From an uncultured delta proteobacterium (GTDB lineage: Bacteria; Desulfobacterota; BSN033; UBA1163), in assembly GCA_963708295.1 (NCBI GenBank), contig CAVPSJ010000006.1, positions 8,635 to 72,634 on the forward strand: a stretch of 64,000 nucleotides of DNA. The letters are read 5' to 3'. This document shows positions 6,077 through 64,000 of this stretch, one piece after another. A program made the translations under genes and the position numbers. Under the pieces are notes generated by a model. The model ran no database searches, was not told the DNA's origin, and saw nothing but the letters and a program-made list of their open reading frames with translations. Position 1 is the stretch's first letter; each line of letters starts with the position of its first letter.

Positions 6077-6151
6077 TGGAGGCGGCAACCGGATTTGAAC
6101 CGGTGAATAACGGTTTTGCAGACCGTCGCCTTACCACTTGGCTATGCCGCC
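6077..6151 (-). tRNA. tRNA-Cys (GCA)
   Basis: GGCGGCATAGCCAAGTGGTAAGG...CTGCAAAA...GGTTCAAATCC...CCA. Confidence 0.97.
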
Positions 6152-6153
6152 AT

Positions 6154-6228
<75 letters not shown>

Positions 6229-21246: not shown

Positions 21247-22827
21247 CTAGACCTTGAATGCCCCTTCGCTTCCGATATATCGCTTCCTCAACTTTGTCTT
21301 TTCCAATTTGCCGGTAGGGTTCCGCGGGACCTCTCCTAAAAAGATCTTTCGGGGCCGCTTGTATTTCGGCAGTTTCTCACAGTATTGAAGGATCTCTTCT
21401 TCGGTAAGTGATTTGCCCGGAACCACATCTATCACGACGGCAACAATTTCACCCAGTCGCTCGTCAGGATAGCCAATGGCCGCCACATCCTTCACGCCTG
21501 GATGGGTATGGAGGAAATTCTCCACTTCAATCGGGAAGACATTCTCGCCGCCGACGATGATGACATCCTTCTTTCTGTCTACGATATAAATGAAGCCGTC
21601 TTCATCCTGTCTCGCCATATCTCCCGTGTAGAGCCATCCATCCTTTAGTGCCCGCGCCGTGGCTTCAGGGTTCTTGTAATACTCCCGCATCACCCCGTTC
21701 CCACGAAGGAGAAGCTCGCCGGTCTGTCCCCGGCTGACGTTCTTGCTATCTTCGTCTACAATACGGGTCTCCCAGTTGAATCCCGGCCTGCCGATGGCCC
21801 CGACCTTATGGATATTCTCAATCCCGAGGTGCACGCAGTTCGGGCCGGTGCTTTCACTCAACCCGAATGTCGTGTCATAGGCCATCTCCGGAAAATACTT
21901 CCTCCAGTGCGTGATCAGGGAAGGTGGAACCGGCTGCGCCCCGATATGCATCAGGCGCCACTGGGAGAGCTTGTAATCTTTCAGCTTCAGCTCGCCGCTG
22001 TCCAGTTTGACCAGGATATCCTGCGCCCAGGGGACCAGAAGCCAGACAATGGTGCCCCCTTCCTCGCTCGCGGCTTCGAGAATCGATTCCGGAGAGATGC
22101 CCTTCAGGATCACCGCGGCCCCTCCGACGATAAAGCTGCCCAGCCAGTGCATCTTCGCTCCTGTATGATAAAGGGGAGGGATGAGGATGAAGATATCCTT
22201 CTTGGTCTGAAAATGATGGATGTTCTCAGTGATACATGCATTGGCCATGTTCAGGTGGGTCAACAGGATCGGTTTGGGCTGGCCCGTCGTCCCGGAAGTA
22301 AAGTAGAGCCCGCAGGGATCGTCAAACGTGATAGGCACTCCAGGCGGCGTGGCATCTGATCCGGATAGAACTTTGGAAAATGATTCCGCATAAGGAGGGA
22401 TCTTCTCCCCCACACAGATAAGGTGTTTGACAGACGAAAGGCCCTCCCGGATCGGCCCTACCCTCTCCGCGAATTCCTCGCCGAATACGAAGACGGCCGG
22501 CTCTGCCACATCGCAACAGTATTCAATGTCGCTGCTTGTGAAGCGAAAGTTGAGAGGCACCACCCATGCCCCTGTCCGGATGATCCCGAAATAGACGACG
22601 AGCCAGTCGATCGAGTTGTTCATGAGGTGTATGACTTTGTCGCCTTTCTTGATGCCCCTGGACGAAAGACCGTTTGCGAAACGATTTGCGCGCTCGTCGA
22701 ATTCACGCCAGGTAATCGTGCTTCTTTTCTTTTCCGCCGGTATCCTTTCGATAAGAGCAACGTCATCGGGATACATCCGGGCATTCCTTGCCAGCATCTC
22801 ACCGATGTGGATCTGGATATCCCTCAT
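21247..22827 (-). CDS. AMP-dependent acyl-CoA synthetase
   Basis: YFTSGTTGQPK, FGLSES, GWLYTGD, DRKKDVIIVGGENVFP, GKLEK. Confidence 0.92.
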   Translation of the reverse strand: MRDIQIHIGEMLARNARMYPDDVALIERIPAEKKRSTITWREFDERANRFANGLSSRGIKKGDKVIHLMNNSIDWLVVYFGIIRTGAWVVPLNFRFTSSDIEYCCDVAEPAVFVFGEEFAERVGPIREGLSSVKHLICVGEKIPPYAESFSKVLSGSDATPPGVPITFDDPCGLYFTSGTTGQPKPILLTHLNMANACITENIHHFQTKKDIFILIPPLYHTGAKMHWLGSFIVGGAAVILKGISPESILEAASEEGGTIVWLLVPWAQDILVKLDSGELKLKDYKLSQWRLMHIGAQPVPPSLITHWRKYFPEMAYDTTFGLSESTGPNCVHLGIENIHKVGAIGRPGFNWETRIVDEDSKNVSRGQTGELLLRGNGVMREYYKNPEATARALKDGWLYTGDMARQDEDGFIYIVDRKKDVIIVGGENVFPIEVENFLHTHPGVKDVAAIGYPDERLGEIVAVVIDVVPGKSLTEEEILQYCEKLPKYKRPRKIFLGEVPRNPTGKLEKTKLRKRYIGSEGAFKV

Positions 22828-22920
22828 ATGTCCCTCCTCAGGATAGTTATTACAAGGAGCATGAAATAGCCTCCATCTCGGGATTGGATCTTCACCGCCC
22901 ACTCGTCCTCGAACAACAGG

Positions 22921-23108
22921 ACTCGTTAGAGACGCGGAGGTCGCTGAGTAGGATATCTTTCTTATGAAGAATCGGGAGATGCCGATTCTTCATAAGCCTA
23001 TGGCCTTCGGCTAGGAATCTTTCCAGCCCGGTTGGAGTGTAATTTGCCTGTCGGTATCTCTCGACAAGCAAATTAGCTTTTCTCCGCGTTCTCTGCGACT
23101 CTGCGGTG
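22921..23108. repeat. Intergenic imperfect inverted-repeat element
   Basis: agagacgcggag ... ctccgcgttctct arms. Confidence 0.45.
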
Positions 23109-23741: not shown

Positions 23742-25563
23742 TCACTTCGTACCCGGGACGATCGCTTCGAATTTGCAGATCTGAACACAGACCTCGCAGC
23801 CCACGCACTGATCCTTGTTGATCAACACGGTCCCTTTCCTCTTGTGGCCGTCTTTTGTCTGGCCTGCACCTTCGAGCCAGCTCATCGCGGGACAGTTGAT
23901 CTCAAGGCACGCCTTGCAGCCCCTGCACTTCTCGGCGTCAATCGCGTAGACATGGGCTCTTGAATTTTTCCAGCGGTTTGGCCCTGCGGAGCAAGATGCA
24001 GGGACTATTTTCTGTGACGATGACGGAGGCATCATCCCTGTTTACCTCTTCCCTGATCACCTCCATCGTTTCGTTCACCTTATAGGGATCCACCTTTCGC
24101 ACGTGCTTGATGCCGACCGCCCTGGCCAACTGCTCATAGTCGATCATGGTTGCGGGCTCGCTTTGTATCGTGTATCCTGTCCCCGGGTGGTCCTGCTGGC
24201 CCGTCATGGCTGTGATCCCGTTATCCAGAATGATCGTCGTGGAATAGCCTTTATTGTACGCGGCGTCTATCAGCGGGGTGACGCCGGAATGAAAGAACGT
24301 CGAGTCTCCGAGCACGGCACAGATCTTCCCGAGCCCGTCTTTGCCGATCACTTTTCCTGCGCCATAGGCGCCCCCGATACCGGCACCCATGCACGTTGAC
24401 GCGTGCATGGCCGAAAGCGGGGGCGCAACCGCCAGGGCATAACACCCGATGTCGCCGAACACATAGAGTCCGAGCTTTTTAAGAGCATAAAACAGCGGCC
24501 TGTGAGCGCAACCGGCACAGAGGTTCGGCGGTCTTCTCGGAAGGTCTTCCGGTTTTACCCGCACTTTCGGCGCCTGGTAGCGTTTGCCTTCCACAGCCTT
24601 CACCAGTGACTGCTTAAGGATATTGGGCGATAACTCGCCTATGGCCGGGATCAAATCCTTACCATGCCGTACTTTATAGCCCATGGCTTTGATCTCCGTC
24701 TCCAGGAAAGGGTCAAGCTCCTCCACCACAATCACCTTCTTCACTTTCTTGAAGAAGGCTGCGATCTTTTTCTTCGGCAGGGGCCAGACCATTCCCAGCT
24801 TCAGGAATGAATACTGCGGGAAAACCTCTTTGGTATAGAGATAGGTAACCCCTGACGTGATAAAGCCGATCGAGGAATCGTTGATCTCCATCGCATTGTA
24901 CGGAAACTCTGAATCCGCGTAAGCGGCGAGTTTGGCAATTCTTTCTTCGATAGCAACCCGCTTCACCCTGGCATACATGGGCACCATGACATACTTCGGC
25001 GTCTCTTTCTGGTCGAGGCCTTTTTGAATCGTCGATTCCTTTCTTTCTCCCAGCTCCACAGGAGAATCGCAGTGAGAAACCCTGGTCTCGGTCCTCAGGA
25101 GCACAGGGGTATCGAATCGCTCGCTGATCTCGAAAGCGGTCTTCGTAAAATCCTTGCACTCCTCGGAATCAGCCGGTTCGAGCATGGGAACCTTTCCAAA
25201 ACGGGTCCAGTTTCTGCTGTCCTGCTCGTTCTGAGAACTGTGCTGCCCCGGATCATCGGCCACGACAATCACAAAACCGCCTTTGACGCCCGTGTAAGAA
25301 ATCGTCATAAAAGGGTCGGCGGCAACGTTCAACCCCACGTGCTTCATGCAGGCCAAGGCTCTTCCGCCAGCAAGAGAAGCGCCATGGGCGACCTCCACGG
25401 CAACCTTCTCATTGGGAGACCATTCCGTGTAGATTTCCCTGTACCTGGATAATTCAGCCATAATTTCGCTGCTCGGCGTCCCGGGATAGGCGCACCCAAC
25501 CACTACCCCCGCCTCCCATGCGCCTCTGGCAATCGCCTCATTCCCCTGCAATATCTTTTTCAT
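23742..25563 (-). CDS. iorA: Indolepyruvate ferredoxin oxidoreductase alpha subunit (one frameshift near 23955)
   Basis: GNEAIARGA, YPGTPSSEI, MKHVGLNVAADP, RPPNLCAGCAHR, GDSTFFHSG; C-terminal ferredoxin CRGCKAC/CVGCEVC in next frame. Confidence 0.93.
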
Positions 25564-51850: not shown

Positions 51851-52981
51851 ATGAACTCAGAACAAATTCCCGGTCTCTACATTCATATTCCTTTTTGTCA
51901 GAGCAAATGCTTTTATTGCGACTTCTATTCATCAACCTCCCTCTCTGCCCTTCCCCTTTTTCTCGAGGCCCTCTTCAAAGAAATGGAGATCTACTCCAGC
52001 CAATTTAGCTCTTTTGATACGGTCTACATCGGGGGCGGGACGCCTTCTCTTCTCAGCCATCAACAATTGGAAAGCATGCTGGCAGGAATAAGGGAAAACT
52101 TCCACCTCACGTCGGACATGGAAATAACCCTGGAAACCAACCCGGCTGATCTCAATCGATCTTATCTTGAATCGTTACGCGAGATCGGAATCAACCGGCT
52201 GAATATCGGAATCCAATCCTTTGATCAGGAAGTGCTCCGCTTCCTGGGAAGACGTCACACTCTGACGCAGGCCATTTCAGCCGTTGAGGCTTCAAGAAAA
52301 GCAGGGTTTCACAACGTAGGGCTCGACTTGATCTACGCTGTCCCGGGGCAGACCATCGATTCATGGCTCGATACCTTGAAACAGGCTGTTGCCTTTGCAC
52401 CGGAGCATCTCTCCTGCTATCAACTCACCCTTGAATCTAAGACGCCTTTGGGGAAAAGATACGAGGTGGGGGAGTTTTCCATTCCCGGAGAAGATTTACA
52501 GTATGATTTTTTTATGAAGACGTCTCAGGTCCTCGAGGACGCTGGGTATATTCATTATGAGGTATCGAACTTTGCCAGGGAAACAAGGTACACCTCCCGG
52601 CATAACCAAAAATATTGGGACCACTCTCCTTATCTCGGTCTGGGGCCTGCCGCCCATTCTTTCTGCGACAATCGTCGCTGGTGGAACTACCGTTCTGTCG
52701 ATCGATACATCACAGCGGTCAACGGGGAAAATCTTCCGGTTGAGGAAACAGAGATCCTCACGATGGAGCAACTCCGGCTGGAGGCGCTCTATTTTGGCCT
52801 AAGGACAAAAAAGGGAATTCATCTCCAGGATTTTAAGAATTTTTATGACTACGATCTTTTCGCCGAAAAAAAGAAAATGCTGAGTAAGCTCCAGGAGGAA
52901 GGATTGATCTCCATTCAGAACGGCCATCTCTGCCCTACCCCAATCGGCCTCGCCGTCGCCGACAGCCTGTCGCTGATTTAG
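51851..52981 (+). CDS. hemW: Radical SAM heme chaperone HemW (HemN-like)
   Basis: LYIHIPFCQSKCFYCDF, GGGTPS, YEVSNFA, HNQKYW, YLGLGPAAHS; follows lepA. Confidence 0.9.
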   Translation: MNSEQIPGLYIHIPFCQSKCFYCDFYSSTSLSALPLFLEALFKEMEIYSSQFSSFDTVYIGGGTPSLLSHQQLESMLAGIRENFHLTSDMEITLETNPADLNRSYLESLREIGINRLNIGIQSFDQEVLRFLGRRHTLTQAISAVEASRKAGFHNVGLDLIYAVPGQTIDSWLDTLKQAVAFAPEHLSCYQLTLESKTPLGKRYEVGEFSIPGEDLQYDFFMKTSQVLEDAGYIHYEVSNFARETRYTSRHNQKYWDHSPYLGLGPAAHSFCDNRRWWNYRSVDRYITAVNGENLPVEETEILTMEQLRLEALYFGLRTKKGIHLQDFKNFYDYDLFAEKKKMLSKLQEEGLISIQNGHLCPTPIGLAVADSLSLI

Positions 52982-53153: not shown

Positions 53154-54362
53154 ATGCAAACGGAGAAGTTTGAAGCTCTCGGAATTTCTATGGAATTGCG
53201 CAGAGCCGTAAAGGATATGGGGTATGAAGCCATGACGCCCATTCAGGCAAAGGCTATCCCTCTGATCCTTCAAGGGAAAGATATTATCGGACAGGCACAG
53301 ACAGGGACAGGGAAAACGCTCGCTTTCGGCCTCCCTCTGCTGAATTCGATACAACCCGGCAACAGGAAAACCCAGGCAATCGTTCTGTGTCCCACCCGTG
53401 AGCTGGCTGTTCAGGTAGCAGACGAGCTCAAAAGAGTTCTCATCCACAAGAGAGAAATTAAAGTGCTGCCTATTTACGGAGGGCAGCCGATCGCACAGCA
53501 GATTCATGGACTCAGGGCCGGTGCCCATGTCATCATCGGAACCCCCGGCCGCACCATAGACCATATCAACAGGGGTACGTTGAAACTCGATCAGGTGAAA
53601 ACCGTTGTCCTGGACGAAGCGGACAAGATGCTCGACATGGGTTTTGTTGACGATGTCGAGAAGATCCTTCGGAAGATCCCCACAGAGAGACAGACCCTGC
53701 TCTTTTCGGCGACCATGCCCAAACCGATCCTCGACCTGACCCGAAAATATCAGCGGGAGCCGGAGTTTGTCAAAATGGTCCAGAAACAATTAACCGTGCC
53801 TCATGTAGAGCAGTATTACCTTGGAGTCCAAGAGGGCATCAAGCTGGATGTCCTGTGCCGCCTCATCGATCTGCACAGCTTAAGGTCCTCCCTCGTTTTC
53901 TGCAACAGGAAAAGGAGCGTGGACGAAGTGGTCAGGAAGCTTGGGGCAAGGGGGTATCTTGCTCAAGGTCTCCATGGAGACATGACCCAGCCTCAGAGAG
54001 GGCGTGCCATGGACAAGTTCAAGAGGAATATCTCAGAGATACTCGTGGCTACGGACGTCGCGGCAAGAGGCATCAATGTGCAGAACATTCAGGCTGTTTT
54101 TAATTACGACCTTCCCCTGGATAAAGAATACTATGTTCACCGAATCGGCAGGACCGCACGCGCAGGGAGGAAAGGACATGCTTTCTCCTTCGTGGTGGGG
54201 AGAGAAATCGGAAAGCTCCGGGCAATCGAAGCCTATGCTGCCACAAAAATTGCCTCCATGCCTGTCCCTTCCATGGCGAATGTGAATAAGGTAAGAACCA
54301 TCCCGTCTCAAAAGGGCAAAGGCATGGGCGGATACAGGCAATCCCAAACGCTATACACATGA
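53154..54362 (+). CDS. DEAD-box RNA helicase (core only, short C-terminus)
   Basis: Q motif, AQTGTGKT, PTRELA, DEAD, SAT, HRIGRTAR. Confidence 0.93.
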   Translation: MQTEKFEALGISMELRRAVKDMGYEAMTPIQAKAIPLILQGKDIIGQAQTGTGKTLAFGLPLLNSIQPGNRKTQAIVLCPTRELAVQVADELKRVLIHKREIKVLPIYGGQPIAQQIHGLRAGAHVIIGTPGRTIDHINRGTLKLDQVKTVVLDEADKMLDMGFVDDVEKILRKIPTERQTLLFSATMPKPILDLTRKYQREPEFVKMVQKQLTVPHVEQYYLGVQEGIKLDVLCRLIDLHSLRSSLVFCNRKRSVDEVVRKLGARGYLAQGLHGDMTQPQRGRAMDKFKRNISEILVATDVAARGINVQNIQAVFNYDLPLDKEYYVHRIGRTARAGRKGHAFSFVVGREIGKLRAIEAYAATKIASMPVPSMANVNKVRTIPSQKGKGMGGYRQSQTLYT

Positions 54363-54369
54363 TAGAAAT

Positions 54370-54577
54370 CAGCTCCGGCTGGAGGCACTCTATTCTGGCC
54401 TACGGGTAAAGAAGGGGCTCTCCCTCAAGGACTTCCAGAACCCAATATGGCTTCGATCTCTTCACCGAAAGGCGGACCATTCTGGGTAAACTCCAGGAGG
54501 AAGGATTGATCTCCGTCCAAGATGGCCGCCTCTACTCTACCCAACCGGCCTCGCCGTCGCCGACTGCCTTTCGTTGA
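54370..54577 (+). repeat. Degenerate direct duplicate of the hemW 3' end
   Basis: ctccggctggaggc...ctccaggaggaaggattgatctcc...cggcctcgccgtcgccgac shared with 52769-52977. Confidence 0.85.
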
Positions 54578-57175: not shown

Positions 57176-57232
57176 GCCGAACAGTGAAGGTCAGGCGCGC
57201 TGCAAAGCGTCGCCTGCACCCTCTTGTTGGCC
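57176..57232 (-). mobile_element. Integron attC site 1
   Basis: R'' GGCCAAC, L'' GGTGCAGG, L' CCTGACC, R' GTTCGGC; both extrahelical bases present. Confidence 0.85.
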
Positions 57233-57740
57233 ATCCGCTTTGAATCCTTCGTGGAAAGTGACGGTGCCCTGCGGAGTATGCCCGTCGAAAGACAGAGCAA
57301 AGAAGACCTCTTGTGGCACTCCCTCATGCACAAGTCCAGACATGTTTGTGAACCCGAATTTCTTGTAGTAATCCGGATGTCCCACGAGACAACATCCTTG
57401 AGCATTCATGTCTTTCAGACGTGACAACCCTTCCTGTATCAGCGCTTTACCGATGCCCTGCCGCTGGTACGCCGGCAACACCGAAACAGGTCCAAGTCCA
57501 TACCAGTTAGGAGGTGCCATCGGAAATGGTCACGGGAGAGAAAGCAATATGTCCTATCACTCGGCCATCCATTTCTGCGACCAGCGATACCGTAAGAGCT
57601 TTGGCGGCACGTAGCGCCTCGATGATGAACTGCTCCGTGTGGTTGCTGATCTCCAAGGTCTTGAACGCTGCGATAGTCACCTCAGTTATCGCGCAAACAT
57701 CGTTATGCGTCTCGTTCCTGATAACGATCTTTGGATTCAT
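57191..57740 (-). CDS. GNAT N-acetyltransferase cassette (YhbS-like), frameshift near 57510
   Basis: IRNET, VIGHIAFSPV, GLGPVSVLPAYQRQGIGKAL, GHPDYYKKFGF. Confidence 0.88.
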
Positions 57741-57764
57741 GGTCTCATATTCCTCTTTCTTGCA

Positions 57765-57856
57765 GGCCAACAAATTAGATGAGGCGCAGGGGCACAGGCC
57801 TATAAACAGAAAACGAAAAGACGTTATTCCCTGTCGCCTCGATTTGCTTGTTAGAG
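57765..57856 (-). mobile_element. Integron attC site 2
   Basis: R'' CTCTAAC (contains the ORF stop), L'' AATCGAGG, L' CCTCATC, R' GTTGGCC; extra C and A. Confidence 0.88.
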
Positions 57857-58480
57857 CTTCCTCATCATTTCATCGAACTCATCCATGTGACGCGTGAACT
57901 CCTTATCCATGACATGCAGCAAGAACTTCGATAGGAAATCACAGATCCTCTTCACGCTGTTAGGGTTTGTCTGGTCTGCGCTTGGCGTGAGGGAACCATG
58001 GACGAAGACATGTCGCAGGGACGATGCGAGATAGGTAACGTTACATTCCCTCCCTTTTAGATATTCCTCAAGATGCTTCTTGTTAGTCTGGTTTGTTCGC
58101 TCTTGGACGAACTTATAGAACCGATTGCCTGTATCTACCGTCCTGATTGCAGACAGGAGCTTTCTTGTGTTGTACTTTTCCAGTACTTTTAAAAATGTCG
58201 ACTGCTTCGTCTGAGTGATTTTCATGAATTGTTCAAGTGCAGACCACATAAAGAACAGCCTCAGGAGGCCTTCATAGCCAGACGCTGTAGCCTCTGAATA
58301 GGAATCGAAAGAAACCGAGGAGAACGACTTTGCAATTCGATAGCGCGCCGCAAAGCGATTCACTTCGCCTATGTCGTCGATGAACCCAAAGGCACGCGGT
58401 GGAGGCCCGTTCACATGTCGGTCAAACCGATGCCAGTCTGTTGGCAGGTTCTTAGGATATGCTGAGACTATCAATCCCAT
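57851..58480 (-). CDS. Cassette-encoded helical protein with HEPN-like RxxxxH motif
   Basis: WSALE and RHVFVHG. Confidence 0.7.
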   Translation of the reverse strand: MGLIVSAYPKNLPTDWHRFDRHVNGPPPRAFGFIDDIGEVNRFAARYRIAKSFSSVSFDSYSEATASGYEGLLRLFFMWSALEQFMKITQTKQSTFLKVLEKYNTRKLLSAIRTVDTGNRFYKFVQERTNQTNKKHLEEYLKGRECNVTYLASSLRHVFVHGSLTPSADQTNPNSVKRICDFLSKFLLHVMDKEFTRHMDEFDEMMRKL

Positions 58481-58490
58481 ACTTTCCTTG

Positions 58491-58580
58491 CTCTAACGAT
58501 AGCCTTAACCAGCGGGCTATATTAACAAAAATGATAACCATAGAGGGCTATTCCCCGTCTGGTTAAAGGCTGTGTTATAT
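58491..58580 (-). mobile_element. Integron attC site 3
   Basis: R'' ATATAAC, L'' CTTTAACC, L' GGTTAAG, R' GTTAGAG. Confidence 0.87.
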
Positions 58581-58593
58581 GTTTATTCATTTC

Positions 58594-59007
58594 TTAATTG
58601 TCAGCGTAAGCGAGGGCCTCGGAAACAGCCTTGTCTGTTACGGAATGATTTGTCACTCTAGGAAATTGTGATCGATAATCTTTTGCGACCTTTAACGCCT
58701 TTTTAACATCCTTTCTTAAGTGTTCTGAACTGTGGATGCCCACGGAAAAATTCATAAGATCATGATCAAGGGTCCTTTCAAGGGTTTCGGTGGCCTCATC
58801 CATTTTTCCGTCATGTATCTTGCTGAGTACGAATACTTTTTCCTTGATCGCCAATATCGTCGATAAGTTTGACCCATCGCTGAAAAAGGAGCCAAGAAAA
58901 CGCGATGCTCTATGTTCCCCTATGGATTCCCCTATCGCTCCTCCGATTATTGCGCCCAAAATGAAGATGCCTATTAATAAGAAGATTTTACGCCGAGTAA
59001 TGATCAT
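58594..59007 (-). CDS. Cassette-encoded membrane-anchored hypothetical protein
   Basis: N-terminal TM; fills the space between attC4 and attC3. Confidence 0.75.
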   Translation of the reverse strand: MIITRRKIFLLIGIFILGAIIGGAIGESIGEHRASRFLGSFFSDGSNLSTILAIKEKVFVLSKIHDGKMDEATETLERTLDHDLMNFSVGIHSSEHLRKDVKKALKVAKDYRSQFPRVTNHSVTDKAVSEALAYADN

Positions 59008-59025
59008 TTGTCATTTCCTTCTTTC

Positions 59026-59106
59026 ATATAACGGCAGAAAGATCACCCGTTGACAATAGCGTGCTCGGCATGCCTATTGTCAATCGGGTGGATTTGCTTG
59101 TTAGGC
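59026..59106 (-). mobile_element. Integron attC site 4
   Basis: R'' GCCTAAC, L'' AATCCACC, stem TTGACAATAG/CTATTGTCAA, L' GGTGATC, R' GTTATAT. Confidence 0.88.
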
Positions 59107-59171
59107 CATGATGCTCTTCGATTAAAAATCAATAATGATGTTTGCCGCCGCATACTTTTTCAAATGTGCAT

Positions 59172-59378
59172 CTAACTCATCATTTTATCGATTATTATGA
59201 AACATAGGACAAAGGCAAATACGTGAATCAAAAACCATAATATAGCAATACTCTTCTCTTTCAAGGCTGCCTTTAAAAATCTCACATAAATTGGTTGCAC
59301 GAAAAACGGATTATAGCTGGTGACAATTTTCCTTTTCATCAGAAATCTATACATAGCAGTATATGACACAACGACCAT
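59172..59378 (-). CDS. Small hydrophobic cassette ORF, probably 5'-truncated
   Basis: AT-rich hydrophobic ORF upstream of attC4. Confidence 0.45.
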   Translation of the reverse strand: MVVVSYTAMYRFLMKRKIVTSYNPFFVQPIYVRFLKAALKEKSIAILWFLIHVFAFVLCFIIIDKMMS

Positions 59379-59499
59379 GAGAAGGATAATGCGGCTACAT
59401 AAAAAAGACCGATCACGACAGTGAATTCCCTTCTGGTGTATTTAAGATTGGATTCAAACAAACAATTCCAATTTCGACTGGACCCCTCCAATCCGAAAT

Positions 59500-60020
59500 C
59501 ACTCTTGTCCAAGATAGGTTTTGAAAAAGAAAAGGCCCTCGTTTAATAATGTGGTGGAGGATTTCTGCCAGGGAATCCCATCACACATAAAGGAGGGCCC
59601 GCGATGAATAATTTTTGTAGCATATTCAGCCAACTCTTACAACTTTTTCCAAGAGTTGAGTTCCAACACATGGTGAAAGAAACCCATGCCGAACGTCATG
59701 CGAAAGGATTTACTTGCTGGGGTCAATTTGTCGCCATGCTGTTTTGTCAATTGGGCCGCGCCCATTCCCTCCGGGAGATTAACGGGGGACTCCGAAGTTG
59801 CGAAGGCAAACTCAAACACCTGGGCATCACCGCTCCGAGTCATTCCACCCTGGCTTATGCCAACCAACATCGTCCCTGGAAACTTTATCAGGAACTGTTT
59901 CTTCGACTCTTTGAACGATGCCATATCCAGGTCGTTGGGAAGAAAACGTTCCGGTTTAAAAAGAAATTGATCAGCATGGATTCGACCACCATCGATTTGT
60001 GTCTGGAGATGTTTGATTGC
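59500..60020 (+). mobile_element. IS4-family element, 5' portion only (DUF4372 transposase from 59604, truncated)
   Basis: Left end CACTCTTGTCCAAG; FTCWGQFVAMLFCQL...SLREI...STLAYAN...DSTTIDLCL, then an abrupt break. Confidence 0.85.
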
Positions 60021-60021
60021 G

Positions 60022-60064
60022 TACACACCCAGTGTCATACACACCCAGCACACACCCAGTGTCA
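60022..60064. repeat. Three tandem ACACACCCAG(TGTCA) units at the IS4/RAYT junction
   Basis: tacacacccagtgtca tacacacccag cacacacccagtgtca. Confidence 0.8.
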
Positions 60065-60071
60065 GGTCTTT

Positions 60072-61696
60072 ACGGGCTGTTGCCCAAATGATGCTTGCAA
60101 CGATTATACATTCGAGCTATAAGCATGGCAACACAAATCAGGAATGGAGATTTTGCCATGATGGGTCAACAGACAGGAATTCAGCCGAAGATCTTCTATC
60201 CTCATATGAACCTTGAGCAAAGGGTTCCCCGGACACATCTTCTGAGAAGGATTCAAGAGCAGATTGACTTTAACTTCATCTATGCGGAGGTCAGAGACAC
60301 CTATGGGGGCAATGGGAATGTTTCCATTCCTCCTCCTGTGATCCTGAAGATGATGTTGCTTTTGGTTCTTTACAATGTTCGATCGGAACGGGAGTTGATG
60401 GAAACGATTCCCATGCGATTAGACTGGCTATGGTTTTTAGGGTACGACATAGACAGTGAAGTGCCGGATCACAGTGTTTTGAGTAAAGCCCGGGCGCGGT
60501 GGGGAGTGGAGGCGTTTCGGAGGTTTTTTGAGCGAATTGTTTGGCAATGTGTGGAAGCAGGGTTAGTGGATGGCAGTAAGATCTTTGTGGATTCGAGCCT
60601 GGTGGATGCGGATGCATCGAATAACTCTGTGATCGACACTCGATCTCTAAAGGTTCAACTTCAGGAGAGCTACAAGAAGTTGGAAGCCCGTTTGGAGGAG
60701 AAGAGCGAGAGCACGGATTCCTCGAGGAGATACGTTAAAGAGAACAGTCGTTATATCTCTACCACCGATCCGGATGCGGCGATTGTGAATCGGGGGAAGC
60801 CGAAACTTTCCTATCAGGTTCATCGGGCAGTGGATGGGCGGAGTGAAGTGATCACAGCCACGGAGACGACCTCTGGAGATGTCAATGAAGCCCATGAGAT
60901 GATTCCTTTATTAGAGAGTCACCATTTAAACACAGGGATCAAGGCGGATACGGTGGTGGCGGACAGCAAATATGGGACGATCGAGAACTTTTTGGCCTGT
61001 CATGATCAGAGGGGTAGAGGCACACATGCCGGATTTGAAGGAATCGACGGCGAAGCGAATCGAGAAGCTCAACATCTTTTCGGAAGAGCGGTTTGAGTAT
61101 GATGGGGAGAGCGACACCTATCGTTGTCCGGCAGGGAATCGGTTGAAGCCTAGATCCTTACATCATGAGTCGGCAAAGTAGAGATTACGCTGCATCCAAG
61201 AAGATTTGTGCTGCATGTCACTTAAGAGAGCAGTGTACCAGGAACAAGTCGGGTCGGACGATCAAGCGACATCTGAGGCAGGAAGAGCTAGACAGGATGC
61301 GGGAGGCGAGTCGATCGGCCAAAGCGAAGCGGGATATCAAAATGAGGCAGCACTTGATGGAGCGTTCCTATGCCAGAGGGACGCGGTATGGATTTGACCG
61401 GGCACGATGGAGAGGGCTTTGGCGGGTGCAGATACAGGAATACTTGATCTCTGCTGTCCAGAACATTCAGGTTTTGCTGAGGTATGGATCTTATCTAAAG
61501 AGAAGTCCATCGGTCATGATGGAGCAGATCAAAGGGGCTATGACAAGGGATATAAGGTCTTTTTTAGATTTTAAGGAGCTGATGAACTCAAAAATCGGCC
61601 AAAGGGTGCTATTTGGTTTTACTTACCCTCGGCTATCATTCATCGAAACTTAAATTTTCAGATATTTTTGAATTGGGCTTTTGAGCAACAGCCCGT
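60072..61696 (+). mobile_element. IS1182-family insertion sequence (transposase 60158-61653 with two frameshifts)
   Basis: 17-bp TIR ACGGGCTGTTGCYCAAA; SERELM, FLGY, PDHSVLSKARAR, VDSS, STTDPDA, ADSKYG, YRCPAG, CAACHLREQC. Confidence 0.9.
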
Positions 61697-61736
61697 TGAC
61701 ATGAGACAATTTGAGTATCTTTCGGGAAAACCCCGT

Positions 61737-62702
61737 CTAAGAAAGTTCTTTCTCAATCTTGCTCAATTCCCGATCAAATCCTCGGTCTCGCTGCCGCTTC
61801 CCCTCTACCCTCCTGAAGGCTACGCTCACTGCCGTATAGTGCCTTTTGCCAAAGATGGCCCCAATCTCATTGAGCGAAAGATCCGTCTTCTTCCTCACCA
61901 GATACATCGCAACCTGAGTCCCGCGGTGGAGAGGATGCGCTAGCCGTGTGATCCTATCGGCTGGAACTCCATAGAATGATGCTACCTTCTCCACAATCAC
62001 TCCAGCCTCCGTCTTGCGATGAATTTCCTTGAGCACAGGAACCTCATTCCGTCCCTGAAGTCCTTCCACCCGATTCTTTACTCCCACCCAAAATGTCTCG
62101 CCTCCCAGAACAATCCCCCCCGTTACTGCCTCCAAGGGATCCCTGACCTCCCCCTTTAGTCCCTCCTCCACAAACTCTCGATATTTACGCCGCCCCTTAC
62201 CCAGGCTCTTGTCCATCTGTCCCAAAATGTCCTCTCTCCGAAGCCACCCCGGACAAGACCCCGAAGACAGATAACTAGGATAACTGCTCCATCGATAGGC
62301 CTCCGGCCTCTTCACCATTCCCGCCCTCACTGGATTTAGGTGGATGTAACGGGACAGCTCTAACAAATATGGATCCTTTTCCACAACAATGCTTCGATAG
62401 CGACCCTGGAAAAGATGCCCCACCCGATCATGCCTCCGGTTAAAGTAATTTGTATAAGCGGTATTCAAATCGTGCAAAGCGGCAGATAAGTTTGCCCGGG
62501 GGGTTTCAACAAGAACGTGATAATGATTGGTCATGAGGACATAAGAATGAATCACAACGCCGTAGCGCTCGTAAATCGGCTCAAAACGACTAACAAAGCG
62601 AAGATAGTCCTGCTCTATCAGAAAAATCGGCCGCTTCTCGTTTCCCCTTGCCGTAATGTGATAAAAGCCACCTTCCCACTCGACTCGCAGCGGTCTCGAC
62701 AT
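61737..62702 (-). CDS. REP-associated tyrosine (HUH/Y1) transposase with DnaA-C-like HTH tail
   Basis: YHITARGN, LMTNHYH, GHLFQGRY, YIHLNPVRAG, YRWSSY; AMYL...SLNEIGAIFGKRHYTAV. Confidence 0.92.
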   Translation of the reverse strand: MSRPLRVEWEGGFYHITARGNEKRPIFLIEQDYLRFVSRFEPIYERYGVVIHSYVLMTNHYHVLVETPRANLSAALHDLNTAYTNYFNRRHDRVGHLFQGRYRSIVVEKDPYLLELSRYIHLNPVRAGMVKRPEAYRWSSYPSYLSSGSCPGWLRREDILGQMDKSLGKGRRKYREFVEEGLKGEVRDPLEAVTGGIVLGGETFWVGVKNRVEGLQGRNEVPVLKEIHRKTEAGVIVEKVASFYGVPADRITRLAHPLHRGTQVAMYLVRKKTDLSLNEIGAIFGKRHYTAVSVAFRRVEGKRQRDRGFDRELSKIEKELS

Positions 62703-62937
62703 AATACCACACTATCTACCATAAATTAATGTCTCATGTCAAGACCTGACACCGTTTTCCTTTACGACTCCTCATTAATGGACACATCCTACTGGTTATC
62801 GCTGCTAACCAGTCGTTTAATAAAACTTCGATAGGAATGCGGTTCTCGCTTCAAAATCGTTGATAGCACCAGCTTATTGCCTCCTGGAAAACCATGGGCA
62901 TCATAATGCTGAAGCATTTTTAAAAATGTCTCGCTAC

Positions 62938-63504
62938 TAGCCTCCCCCAAGGGATACTCCTTCTCTCACATACTCCTCATATCTCTTAACTGCCCGACGC
63001 CCCTTACCGAAATAGGCCCTAATTGCCTTACTATCCTGCCACTCCTGCCTTACCCTCCCCAGGATCGCGGCATGACCTGTCCAACGATAGTCTCTCACGG
63101 CTTCAAGCTACCCACTATCCTTGCTCTTAACGGATTTAAATGAATGTATCTCGTCAATTCCAGTAGATAGGGGTCGTCTTCACATATGATCGATTTGTAT
63201 CTGTTCTGAAAGAGATGACCATATCTCTTGTGCTAGGCAGATTAAAGTTCACGACGTATCCGTAAGAAGTTTCCTCATGCTCTTCGAAATAGGCTGCCGA
63301 CCCGTCCGAAGCAATAAATGAAAGTGGTTGGGCATCAGAGACCAAGCATAGACGATGAGCTCCCCGCCCATCGACAAATCTGCCAGCCTATTGAACGAAA
63401 TCCTCCCCGGTCTTGATCTGTGCGGAAGATGCTTGTCCGGTCGATGCCTTGGCCTATGATATGATGCAACGCCCCGGGAGCATCAGTCTTGGCTGTCTCG
63501 GCAT
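62938..63504 (-). pseudogene. Second RAYT transposase, decayed
   Basis: MPRQPRL, PGALHHI, LMPNHFHLL, GHLFQNRYKSI, YIHLNPLRA read across several frameshifts. Confidence 0.82.
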
Positions 63505-63510
63505 AAAACC

Positions 63511-63539
63511 ACCTTACAGACTTTCGCTCTAGCTGTCAA
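63511..63539 (-). promoter_or_regulatory. Putative sigma70 promoter for a leaderless RAYT transcript
   Basis: TTGACA-N17-TAAGGT, ATG 6 nt after the -10 box, no SD. Confidence 0.5.
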
Positions 63540-63573
63540 GTTGTTTTAGAACCAACGTCCCCTAGATCTTTGC

Positions 63574-63860
63574 CGCCGGAGGGTTCTTTGCAGCTGCTAT
63601 CCAGGTTCTACACCACTTCCATGGCCTTCGGTATCAATCAGTAACTCGGCTCCCTCTTGCTCCCCTTTTGGGGCCACATTTCGACGCTGCAGGATTCACT
63701 TGATGTTACGGGCTGCTGTTTTGCTCCTCTTCTCAGAGGGTTACATCGCTTCAACACATTCAGTCGCCCGAATGCATTGGATGCCTGCTACATGGCCCCC
63801 TGGCGGTTACCATGACCGGACTTGCACCGGTTCACGAGTAGATAGCTTTGCAGGGCACAC
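63574..63860 (-). mobile_element. Group II intron, 5' fragment (domain I only, no RT ORF)
   Basis: Starts GTGTG; ACCGGTGCAAGTCCGGT hairpin; GCCGAG...CGAAGGC loop holding GATTGA, complementary to the exon end TCAATT. Confidence 0.8.
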
Positions 63861-64000
63861 AATTGACATGTTCGCTATTGATGCCTAATAGCTTTTGATA
63901 CAATGTCCTTCATGATTTTACCATCTTTGCTGTTATTGAAATCTCTTAATATTATTTATCCAGAAAGGCAGGTCTTTTTTTAAACATAGGTCCCTCAAGA

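Follow-up and report, generated by a model that had tools for sequence, protein, structure and literature searches.

A dead group II intron relic at a putative attC site and its relatives in integron cassette arrays

The contig end and its surroundings

The window analysed here comprises 64,000 nucleotides of an uncultured delta proteobacterium (positions 8635-72634 of contig C6 in genome G000), and the contig terminates at its last base. On the minus strand, this end carries the heptamer AGCGAAC (63876-63870), the spacer ATGTC (63869-63865) and the four bases AATT (63864-63861), which are directly followed by the GTGTG start of a group II intron from position 63860 onward. An earlier sequence-only reading had proposed exactly this layout, and it is borne out by the letters at these positions as well as by an Rfam scan of the window, which returned a match to the RNA family RF02003 (group-II-D1D4-4) at 63701-63833 on the minus strand, with 76 bits against a cut-off of 49 and an E value of 7.5e-15. 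Judged by its sequence features, a 5' GUGYG motif (GTGTG at 63860) and a domain I fold (RF02003), the element is the real 5' part of a group II intron.

The stretch homologous to L101, the closest full-length intron among the relatives described below (90% identity over 302 nt), ends at 63574. The intron is thus represented by a 3'-truncated 5' stub of ~287 nt (63574-63860, minus strand) that covers domain I, in good agreement with the previous estimate of a loss after ~290 nt. Domains V-VI gave no RF00029 match in the window at the gathering score, nor in the interval 58000-64000 at E<=1, and domains II-VI of the intron are absent from both the window and the assembly. Similarly, searches with P0001, PF08388 and PF00078 detected no intron reverse transcriptase/maturase in the window or in the 91.5%-complete assembly, and neither the remaining intron nor an attC 3' half was found further down the window. 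The window copy is therefore a dead relic, which has lost everything past nucleotide ~287 as well as the attC 3' half and resides in an assembly without an intron reverse transcriptase. When compared with the R'' consensus RYYYAAC, its AGCGAAC box fits in the AAC and in two of the four other places, and the R' box (GTTRRRY) that would close the hairpin is absent, its half of the site having been lost. The 140 nt between the stub and the contig end contain no long ORF, and a search of 55 genomes of the same order with the stub DNA produced a match in its own genome only.

Downstream of the stub, a 10-nt filler (63564-63573, minus strand), delimited by alignment to L101 and to the copies of element A on contigs C20 and C4, separates the end of the intron homology from the inverted repeat of an IS-like element. 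This element A (62937-63563, minus strand; left terminal inverted repeat 63563-63540) carries a Y1-transposase-type gene and shares 93% identity with C20:73678-74310 and 83% identity with C4:1008176-1008804; in BLAST comparisons within the genome, the repeat shared with C20 and C4 begins at 63569 and runs downwards. The full copies (G000:C20:73678-74745 and G000:C4:1008170-1009245) are ~1.06 kb long and bounded by 24-nt terminal inverted repeats; their product is a 332-aa Y1_Tnp (IS200-like) protein that also matches a DnaA-C helix-turn-helix weakly, the ORF of the C20 copy matching Y1_Tnp. Inverted-repeat ends are not known to be typical of IS200/605-type elements. The C4 copy lies inside a cassette, between two attC sites and adjoining an integrase fragment, while the copy in the window is cut at 62937, frameshifted and abuts the intron stub. 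An L'/R'-like half had been suggested to follow the stub at 63558-63548, and the letters GACGTTGGTTC are indeed present, but they are part of the 24-nt left terminal inverted repeat of element A. Element A has two more copies in the genome, and the reading of GACGTTGGTTC as an attC half is not supported.

Further down, the window contains a second element of this kind (element B; 61696-62758, minus strand), with an intact 321-aa ORF (61737-62702; Pfam Y1_Tnp and Bac_DnaA_C) and 99% identity to G000:C16:103220-104282, and frameshifted DDE-transposase debris on the plus strand (59604-61653; Pfam DUF4372, DUF772 plus DDE_Tnp_1, and DDE_Tnp_1_6). In L020, the stub's closest genome relative, the intron is likewise cut off at nucleotide ~261 by a gene of the Y1_Tnp plus Bac_DnaA_C type.

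The stub is separated from the nearest attC-like site by about 4.7 kb of IS debris, and it shares its strand with the attC-like sites and the cassette ORFs. The interval 57176-59106 contains four attC-like hairpins without an integrase and thus corresponds to a CALIN, whose sites separate small minus-strand ORFs for two unknown proteins, a frameshifted (split) GNAT acetyltransferase and a HicB-like antitoxin. An 81-nt site at 59026-59106 (minus strand), whose opening TAACAAGCAAATC recurs in the site at 57856, was identified by a home-made hairpin finder, as was a 57-nt site at 57176-57232 (minus strand) that reaches from GGCCAAC to GTTCGGC and has a predicted folding energy of -19.1 kcal/mol. 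The 90-nt site at 58491-58580, located after an ORF at 58594-59007, was returned by the finder on the complementary strand and assigned to the minus strand by eye, whereas the site at 57765-57856 (minus strand) was recognized by eye only and not returned by the finder. The finder is unvalidated; in its strict form, it gave only a coding false positive in the window, and its relaxed form called two sites on the minus strand and three on the plus strand. No integron integrase was detected in the window, and none scored over the TIGR02249 cut-off in the assembly (best match 86 bits, partial). The same holds for the six genomes G000 and G055-G059, which yielded partial integrase matches only.

Relatives of the intron and their target site

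Relatives of the stub were retrieved exclusively by intron-internal patterns, so that their flanking sequences can be regarded as unbiased. A 25-nt pattern from domain I identified 23 loci in species-representative genomes, of which 11 show a GTGTGYCC start and 12 have another 5' part and were left out. A 40-nt pattern located deeper in domain I identified 38 metagenome contigs, six of which lack the 5' end and one of which retains only 5 nt of exon. Additional copies came from an RF02003 scan of five genomes behind some of these loci, including 10 matches in genome G058. After removal of duplicates and of copies with less than 25 nt of upstream sequence, 53 non-redundant junctions remained, a set that includes the window but leaves out a second stub in the same genome (C1:44230, see below). 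The relatives stem from metagenome-assembled genomes labelled Chloroflexota, Anaerolineae, NC10 and Deltaproteobacteria and from metagenome contigs. Five of them match RF02003, like the window stub, and the complete relatives carry domains V-VI. Complete copies exist in two forms, one of ~1.93-2.04 kb with an ORF of 432-436 aa and an ORF-less one of 0.78-0.95 kb, and the intron 3' end (...TGACCCTAC) is reached in 13 of the 53 copies. L101, with a full length of 1934 nt, matches RF00029 and encodes a 432-aa protein with RVT_1 and GIIM domains and without an endonuclease domain.

Across the junction set, the position of the intron relative to the R'' box is strikingly constant. An AAC ends 8-9 nt before the intron in 46 of the 53 junctions (9 nt in 37 and 8 nt in 9), compared with a mean of 2.1 and a maximum of 7 in 1000 shuffles of the flanks; two further junctions have their AAC at 10 nt, and five have none. 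The consensus of the relatives at positions -16 to -10, GCCYAAC, is that of the R'' box. The proposal that the intron sits just past R'', a 5-nt spacer and four more nucleotides thus holds for the lineage at large, and the window junction, with its AAC at 9 nt, has exactly the geometry seen in 37 of the 53 cases. The attC identity of the window site itself, whose 3' half is gone, rests on this comparison with the relatives and is accordingly probable rather than directly readable.

The earlier reading had also picked out the domain I loop GATTGA (63639-63634, minus strand) as the EBS1 element for the exon end. In the window, the EBS1 motif GATTG (63639-63635) is presented by a hairpin at 63630-63645 (minus strand) and forms five out of five pairs, one of them G-U, with CAATT, the last five nucleotides (IBS1) of the exon remnant at 63861-63876 (minus strand). 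Among the relatives, pairing of the 4-bp stem of this hairpin is preserved through compensatory changes and extends to 113 of 120 cells, as opposed to 33-35 of 120 cells when the partner is slid by one position. Over 30 junctions, a mean of 4.43 of the last five exon bases pair with EBS1, with complete pairing in 19 junctions; permuting the exons among the introns reduced this value to a mean of 2.96, and none of 2000 permutations exceeded 3.63. EBS1 occurs in 11 variants, each facing a matching exon. When all columns of domain I were scanned against all exon offsets, EBS1 alone stood out (z 6.4-6.8), with a reach to exon position -7, and the same scan revealed no covariation of the EBS2 type. 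Comparative analysis of the relatives thereby shows that EBS1-IBS1 pairing, at a constant distance from R'', selects the target. A second element, a conserved GTTAG located ~40 nt before EBS1, is complementary to the CTAAC of R'' and mutated in the window copy; it and the R'' box do not covary (z -0.2), neither side being variable.

For 51 junctions with at least 300 nt of upstream sequence, the orientation of the intron was judged from whichever open frame was longest in the 500-nt stretch preceding the junction. This frame is on the intron strand in 42 cases and on the opposite strand in eight, with one tie, and in 22 of the 51 an ORF of 60 aa or more terminates no farther than 40 nt from the junction. 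Because the upstream frames share the strand of the intron in 42 of 51 junctions, the intron is placed in the cassette-sense strand, within that half of the site which adjoins the end of the ORF. Together with the minus-strand location of both the stub and the cassette ORFs in the window, these numbers support the previously suggested co-orientation with the cassettes. One mini-copy in G058 has a divergently oriented integrase fragment at a distance of 1.3 kb.

Reconstitution of attC sites and decay of the copies

A further test suggested at the outset was whether the flanks of full-length relatives rebuild attC sites split at the same position. For the 10 complete relatives with both flanks, the flanks were joined, the AAC was forced onto each downstream GTT, and the best energy per base was compared with that obtained for shuffled 3' flanks. 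In this home-made test, six of the 10 gave a clear attC hairpin and two more a weak one. None of 100 shuffles folded as well for L039, L100, L105 and L114, two of 100 did for L101 and three of 100 for L087; the weaker rebuilds were L112 (8/100, with R'' and R' complementary in 7/7 positions) and L083 (7/60). The joined flanks of L109 (40/100) and of L084, for which only 81 nt of 3' exon are available, did not fold as an attC site. The rebuilt sites are 58-131 nt long and close with boxes of the GTTAGGC type. One detail of the earlier reading, an intron start right after the extrahelical base, did not survive: in L114 and L101, the two relatives with a single-base bulge in their predicted folds, this bulge is located 6-7 nt downstream of the insertion. 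In some predicted folds (e.g., that of L114), the R and L boxes are separated by unpaired bases that include part of IBS1.

The 3' exon of L101 is moreover homologous to three unsplit attC sites in the genome of the window stub (C1:42919-43010, C4:1009341-1009432 and C12:88553-88643). Each of these consists of CAAC, a 5-nt spacer and AATC or AATG, followed by an L101-like continuation and a GTT box, and is uninterrupted at the insertion point. We consider this comparison of a filled with empty sites the strongest single evidence for an attC target. The C4 site is located in a small cassette region beside a C-terminal fragment of a tyrosine recombinase, which is the best, partial TIGR02249 match of the genome. 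A second stub of the same intron lineage (C1:44230-44298 of G000; 69 nt, 84-90% identical) follows a PEMT-like ORF, 1.2 kb downstream of an unsplit attC site; with an AAC just 6 nt ahead of the junction, it is an exception to the 8-9-nt rule.

These data also bear on the possibility that the window site is not an attC site, and that the intron instead landed ectopically at a chance match to EBS1 with a coincidental AAC nearby. The missing 3' half, the imperfect R'' box (AGCGAAC) and the 140 nt of upstream DNA without an ORF would all be in line with such an event, as would the deviating geometry of the C1 stub and the fact that a loose form of the window exon motif is unspecific, with 130 hits in the genome against ~38 expected. 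However, chance would then have to account for an AAC at 9 nt, exactly as in 37 of the 53 junctions, and for the 12 of 16 bases that the exon remnant shares with the same part of the C1:42919-43010 site. In addition, an attC-like cluster lies on the strand of the stub, and EBS1 (GATTG) is perfectly complementary to CAATC, which occupies the matching place in two of the three unsplit sites of the genome (C4 and C12). We therefore regard an ectopic landing as improbable and favour the interpretation that an endonuclease-less group II intron of an attC-homing lineage once inserted into the top strand at this site and that the copy in the window is now dead, which we hold to be very probably correct.

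Truncation is not peculiar to the window. Among the 39 junctions that could be judged, 26 are 3'-truncated stubs (0-1305 nt), and genome G058 contains 10 domain I matches compared with two domain V-VI matches. The loci L015-L036 and L056 are mostly 3'-truncated 5' stubs followed by unrelated co-oriented genes, and L056 (G058:C11:16000-35999) represents a single array with at least six stubs spaced about 1 kb or more. The attC finder called no attC site in this array, its sole hit being a coding false positive; its status as an array therefore rests on the repeated junction units and the layout of the ORFs. Two stubs have the same breakpoint and the same hairpin behind it, which gives the impression of a duplicated composite. 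In L027, no more than about 135 nt separate R'' from a GTTAGGC box that comes after a 72-nt stub.

It is conceivable that such 5' stubs are not mere debris but are kept, either because the shortened insert restores a foldable and usable site or because it serves the array in another way. The high share of 3'-truncated stubs, the ratio of domain I to domain V-VI matches in G058, the occurrence of several stubs ~1 kb apart in one array and the closely spaced boxes of L027 are what this idea would predict. Incomplete reverse transcription should bias the outcome in the opposite direction, against 5'-end stubs. However, the searches were anchored on 5' patterns, so that 3' fragments could not surface, and the domain V-VI model, a short one, scores close to its threshold even for copies that are complete; the excess of 5' stubs may thus be an artefact of 5'-anchored searches and a weak 3' model. 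The breakpoints are, moreover, scattered and share no motif, a GTT, as expected from integrase-made deletions, was looked for at the truncation points and not seen, and the window stub is followed by an IS end instead of an attC half. On balance, retention of the stubs appears quite unlikely to us, and we treat the window stub as the remnant of a dead insertion.

Comparison with known introns and proposed mode of insertion

The best-known integron-associated introns, the IIC-attC introns, insert into the bottom strand and antisense to the cassettes (PMC3001079), and attC targeting is listed for class C only in a 2015 review (PMC4424553). As a reference, we used the IIC intron Kl.pn.I3, named as residing in an attC site next to blaIMP-4 on plasmid p1220-IMP (PMC5027574). 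The Rfam scan of this control revealed a domain I piece that matches RF02001 with 134 bits and a domain V-VI piece that is antisense beside blaIMP-4, both of which were taken as parts of Kl.pn.I3; the use of RF02001 as a class C marker rests on this single control. On the plasmid (L125), the intron beside blaIMP-4 is present in two pieces of opposite orientation (22597-22978, minus strand, and 25024-25093, plus strand) with IS6100 between them. A Klebsiella-type plasmid intron initially considered as the IIC-attC control was rejected, as it lies outside an integron and matches RF02005.

IIC-attC introns such as S.ma.I2 and Kl.pn.I3 and the lineage described here are alike in being mobile, endonuclease-less group II introns that home to attC sites. 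This shared targeting raises the question of whether the present introns are simply members of the IIC-attC group, and the best solved-structure matches of the L101 protein, which belong to class C (7uim, 226 bits; 6ar1, 216 bits), point in the same direction; the set of solved structures, however, covers classes C, ML and CL only, with LtrA (180 bits) and a cyanobacterial enzyme (176 bits) next in rank. Against such an assignment, the Kl.pn.I3 control matches RF02001, as opposed to RF02003 for the present lineage, which in addition inserts in the sense rather than the antisense orientation, on the top instead of the bottom strand. Its insertion point lies before the hairpin stem, 9 nt past the AAC of R'', and its covarying EBS1 pairing spans 5-7 nt. 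Membership in the IIC-attC group is thus extremely improbable, and the notion of a different targeting mode, already put forward from the window alone, is substantiated by differences in RNA family, strand and position. We accordingly continue to view the introns as a separate, attC-homing lineage.

A closer precedent is provided by the group IIB introns that Sonbol and Siam (2021) reported from integrons and CALINs of halophiles, namely UHB.I2 (CL1) and H.ha.F1 and H.ha.F2 (class E) (PMC7923331). These introns resemble the present lineage in being non-IIC, endonuclease-less, cassette-sense and adjoining attC sites, and one case beside IS200/605 elements is reminiscent of the present locus. 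By contrast, UHB.I2, with its UUGCG...GU ends, is located 'immediately after an attC site', and the H.ha fragments are 5'-truncated, with attC-like structures upstream, unlike the stubs analysed here (PMC7923331). The accessible text presents single cases beside attC sites and reports no shared split point, base-pairing rule or lineage-wide pattern (PMC7923331). Full-text literature searches, whose coverage does not extend to subscription journals, yielded no closer published account of a sense-strand lineage that splits attC sites.

The nearest plasmid relatives of the L101 protein are from Leptospira (62% identity) and from Bacillus mycoides/thuringiensis (51-52% identity). The corresponding Leptospira and Bacillus introns are similar to the present lineage in matching RF02003 (82 and 115 bits, respectively) and in protein size, while the B. 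mycoides copy differs in that it starts with GCGTG after a run of T and lacks an R'' box. These Bacillus plasmid introns may, as a lead only, be of the g2/former class F type described in PMC3552965. The genome of the window stub itself also contains copies of a GCGTG-starting sublineage, an ORF-less intron of ~770 nt at G000:C5 ~139160-139930 (minus strand; RF02003, 108 bits; RF00029, 39.5 bits against a cut-off of 40) and a 5' stub at G000:C20:75410-75495 (plus strand), neither of which has an R'' box or is located at an attC site. As the B. mycoides, C5 and C20 copies are all devoid of an R'' box, the attC habit is a trait of the GTGTGYCC sublineage and not of the RF02003 family as a whole.

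Based on these comparisons, the intron very probably entered the top strand, which has the sense of the cassettes, at a point 9 nt beyond the AAC of R'', after the 5-nt spacer and four nucleotides of the next box; as the covariation among the relatives shows, the loop GATTG (EBS1) pairs with the 5-7 terminal bases of the exon. The R'' core might be read by the conserved GTTAG ~40 nt before EBS1 or, alternatively, by the intron protein. Lacking an endonuclease, the intron is expected to enter single-stranded DNA at the replication fork by reverse splicing. In sedentary integrons, the attC bottom strand lay on the template for the leading strand in 25 of 30 cases (PMC5371416), which would place the top strand on the lagging-strand, single-stranded template. 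A functional copy would appear in the same transcript as the cassettes, from which it could be removed by splicing, while, at the DNA level, it would place 0.8-2 kb between R'' and L'-R' and thereby probably cripple the site.

What is new in this picture is that an RNA family different from that of the published class C introns hits a fixed point inside attC sites, in the gene-sense strand, by ordinary base pairing, and that this habit spans several phyla. Whereas the published class C type inserts backwards, behind the folded bottom strand, the present lineage would represent a second, independent solution to the problem of finding integrons. It also supplies naturally varying EBS1 sequences that correspond to attC families and suggests a link, open to testing, between intron homing, single-stranded attC sites at the replication fork and the stability of cassettes. 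For annotation, a short domain I stub beside an AAC box may serve as a marker of a former attC site that attC finders will miss. It is tempting to speculate further that the introns form a widespread environmental non-IIC lineage that is specialized on integrons, reads the R'' core, retunes its EBS1 and acts as a regular player in array evolution, although we regard this combined scenario as tentative and, on present evidence, rather doubtful. If it applied, the 5-7-nt EBS1 would be retuned to the attC family of each host, the R'' core would be read by a fixed RNA motif or a protein, and top-strand insertion would make use of the single-stranded lagging-strand template in most sedentary integrons. 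Insertions and their eroded stubs would then freeze, fuse and reshape cassettes, and the intron would be no occasional passenger.

Two minor features of the window lie farther from the contig end. Two stretches of ~200 nt (52769-52976 and 54370-54577) that are 76-89% identical flank a DEAD-box helicase gene (53154-54362), and two adjacent tRNA genes are located on the minus strand at 6080-6228.
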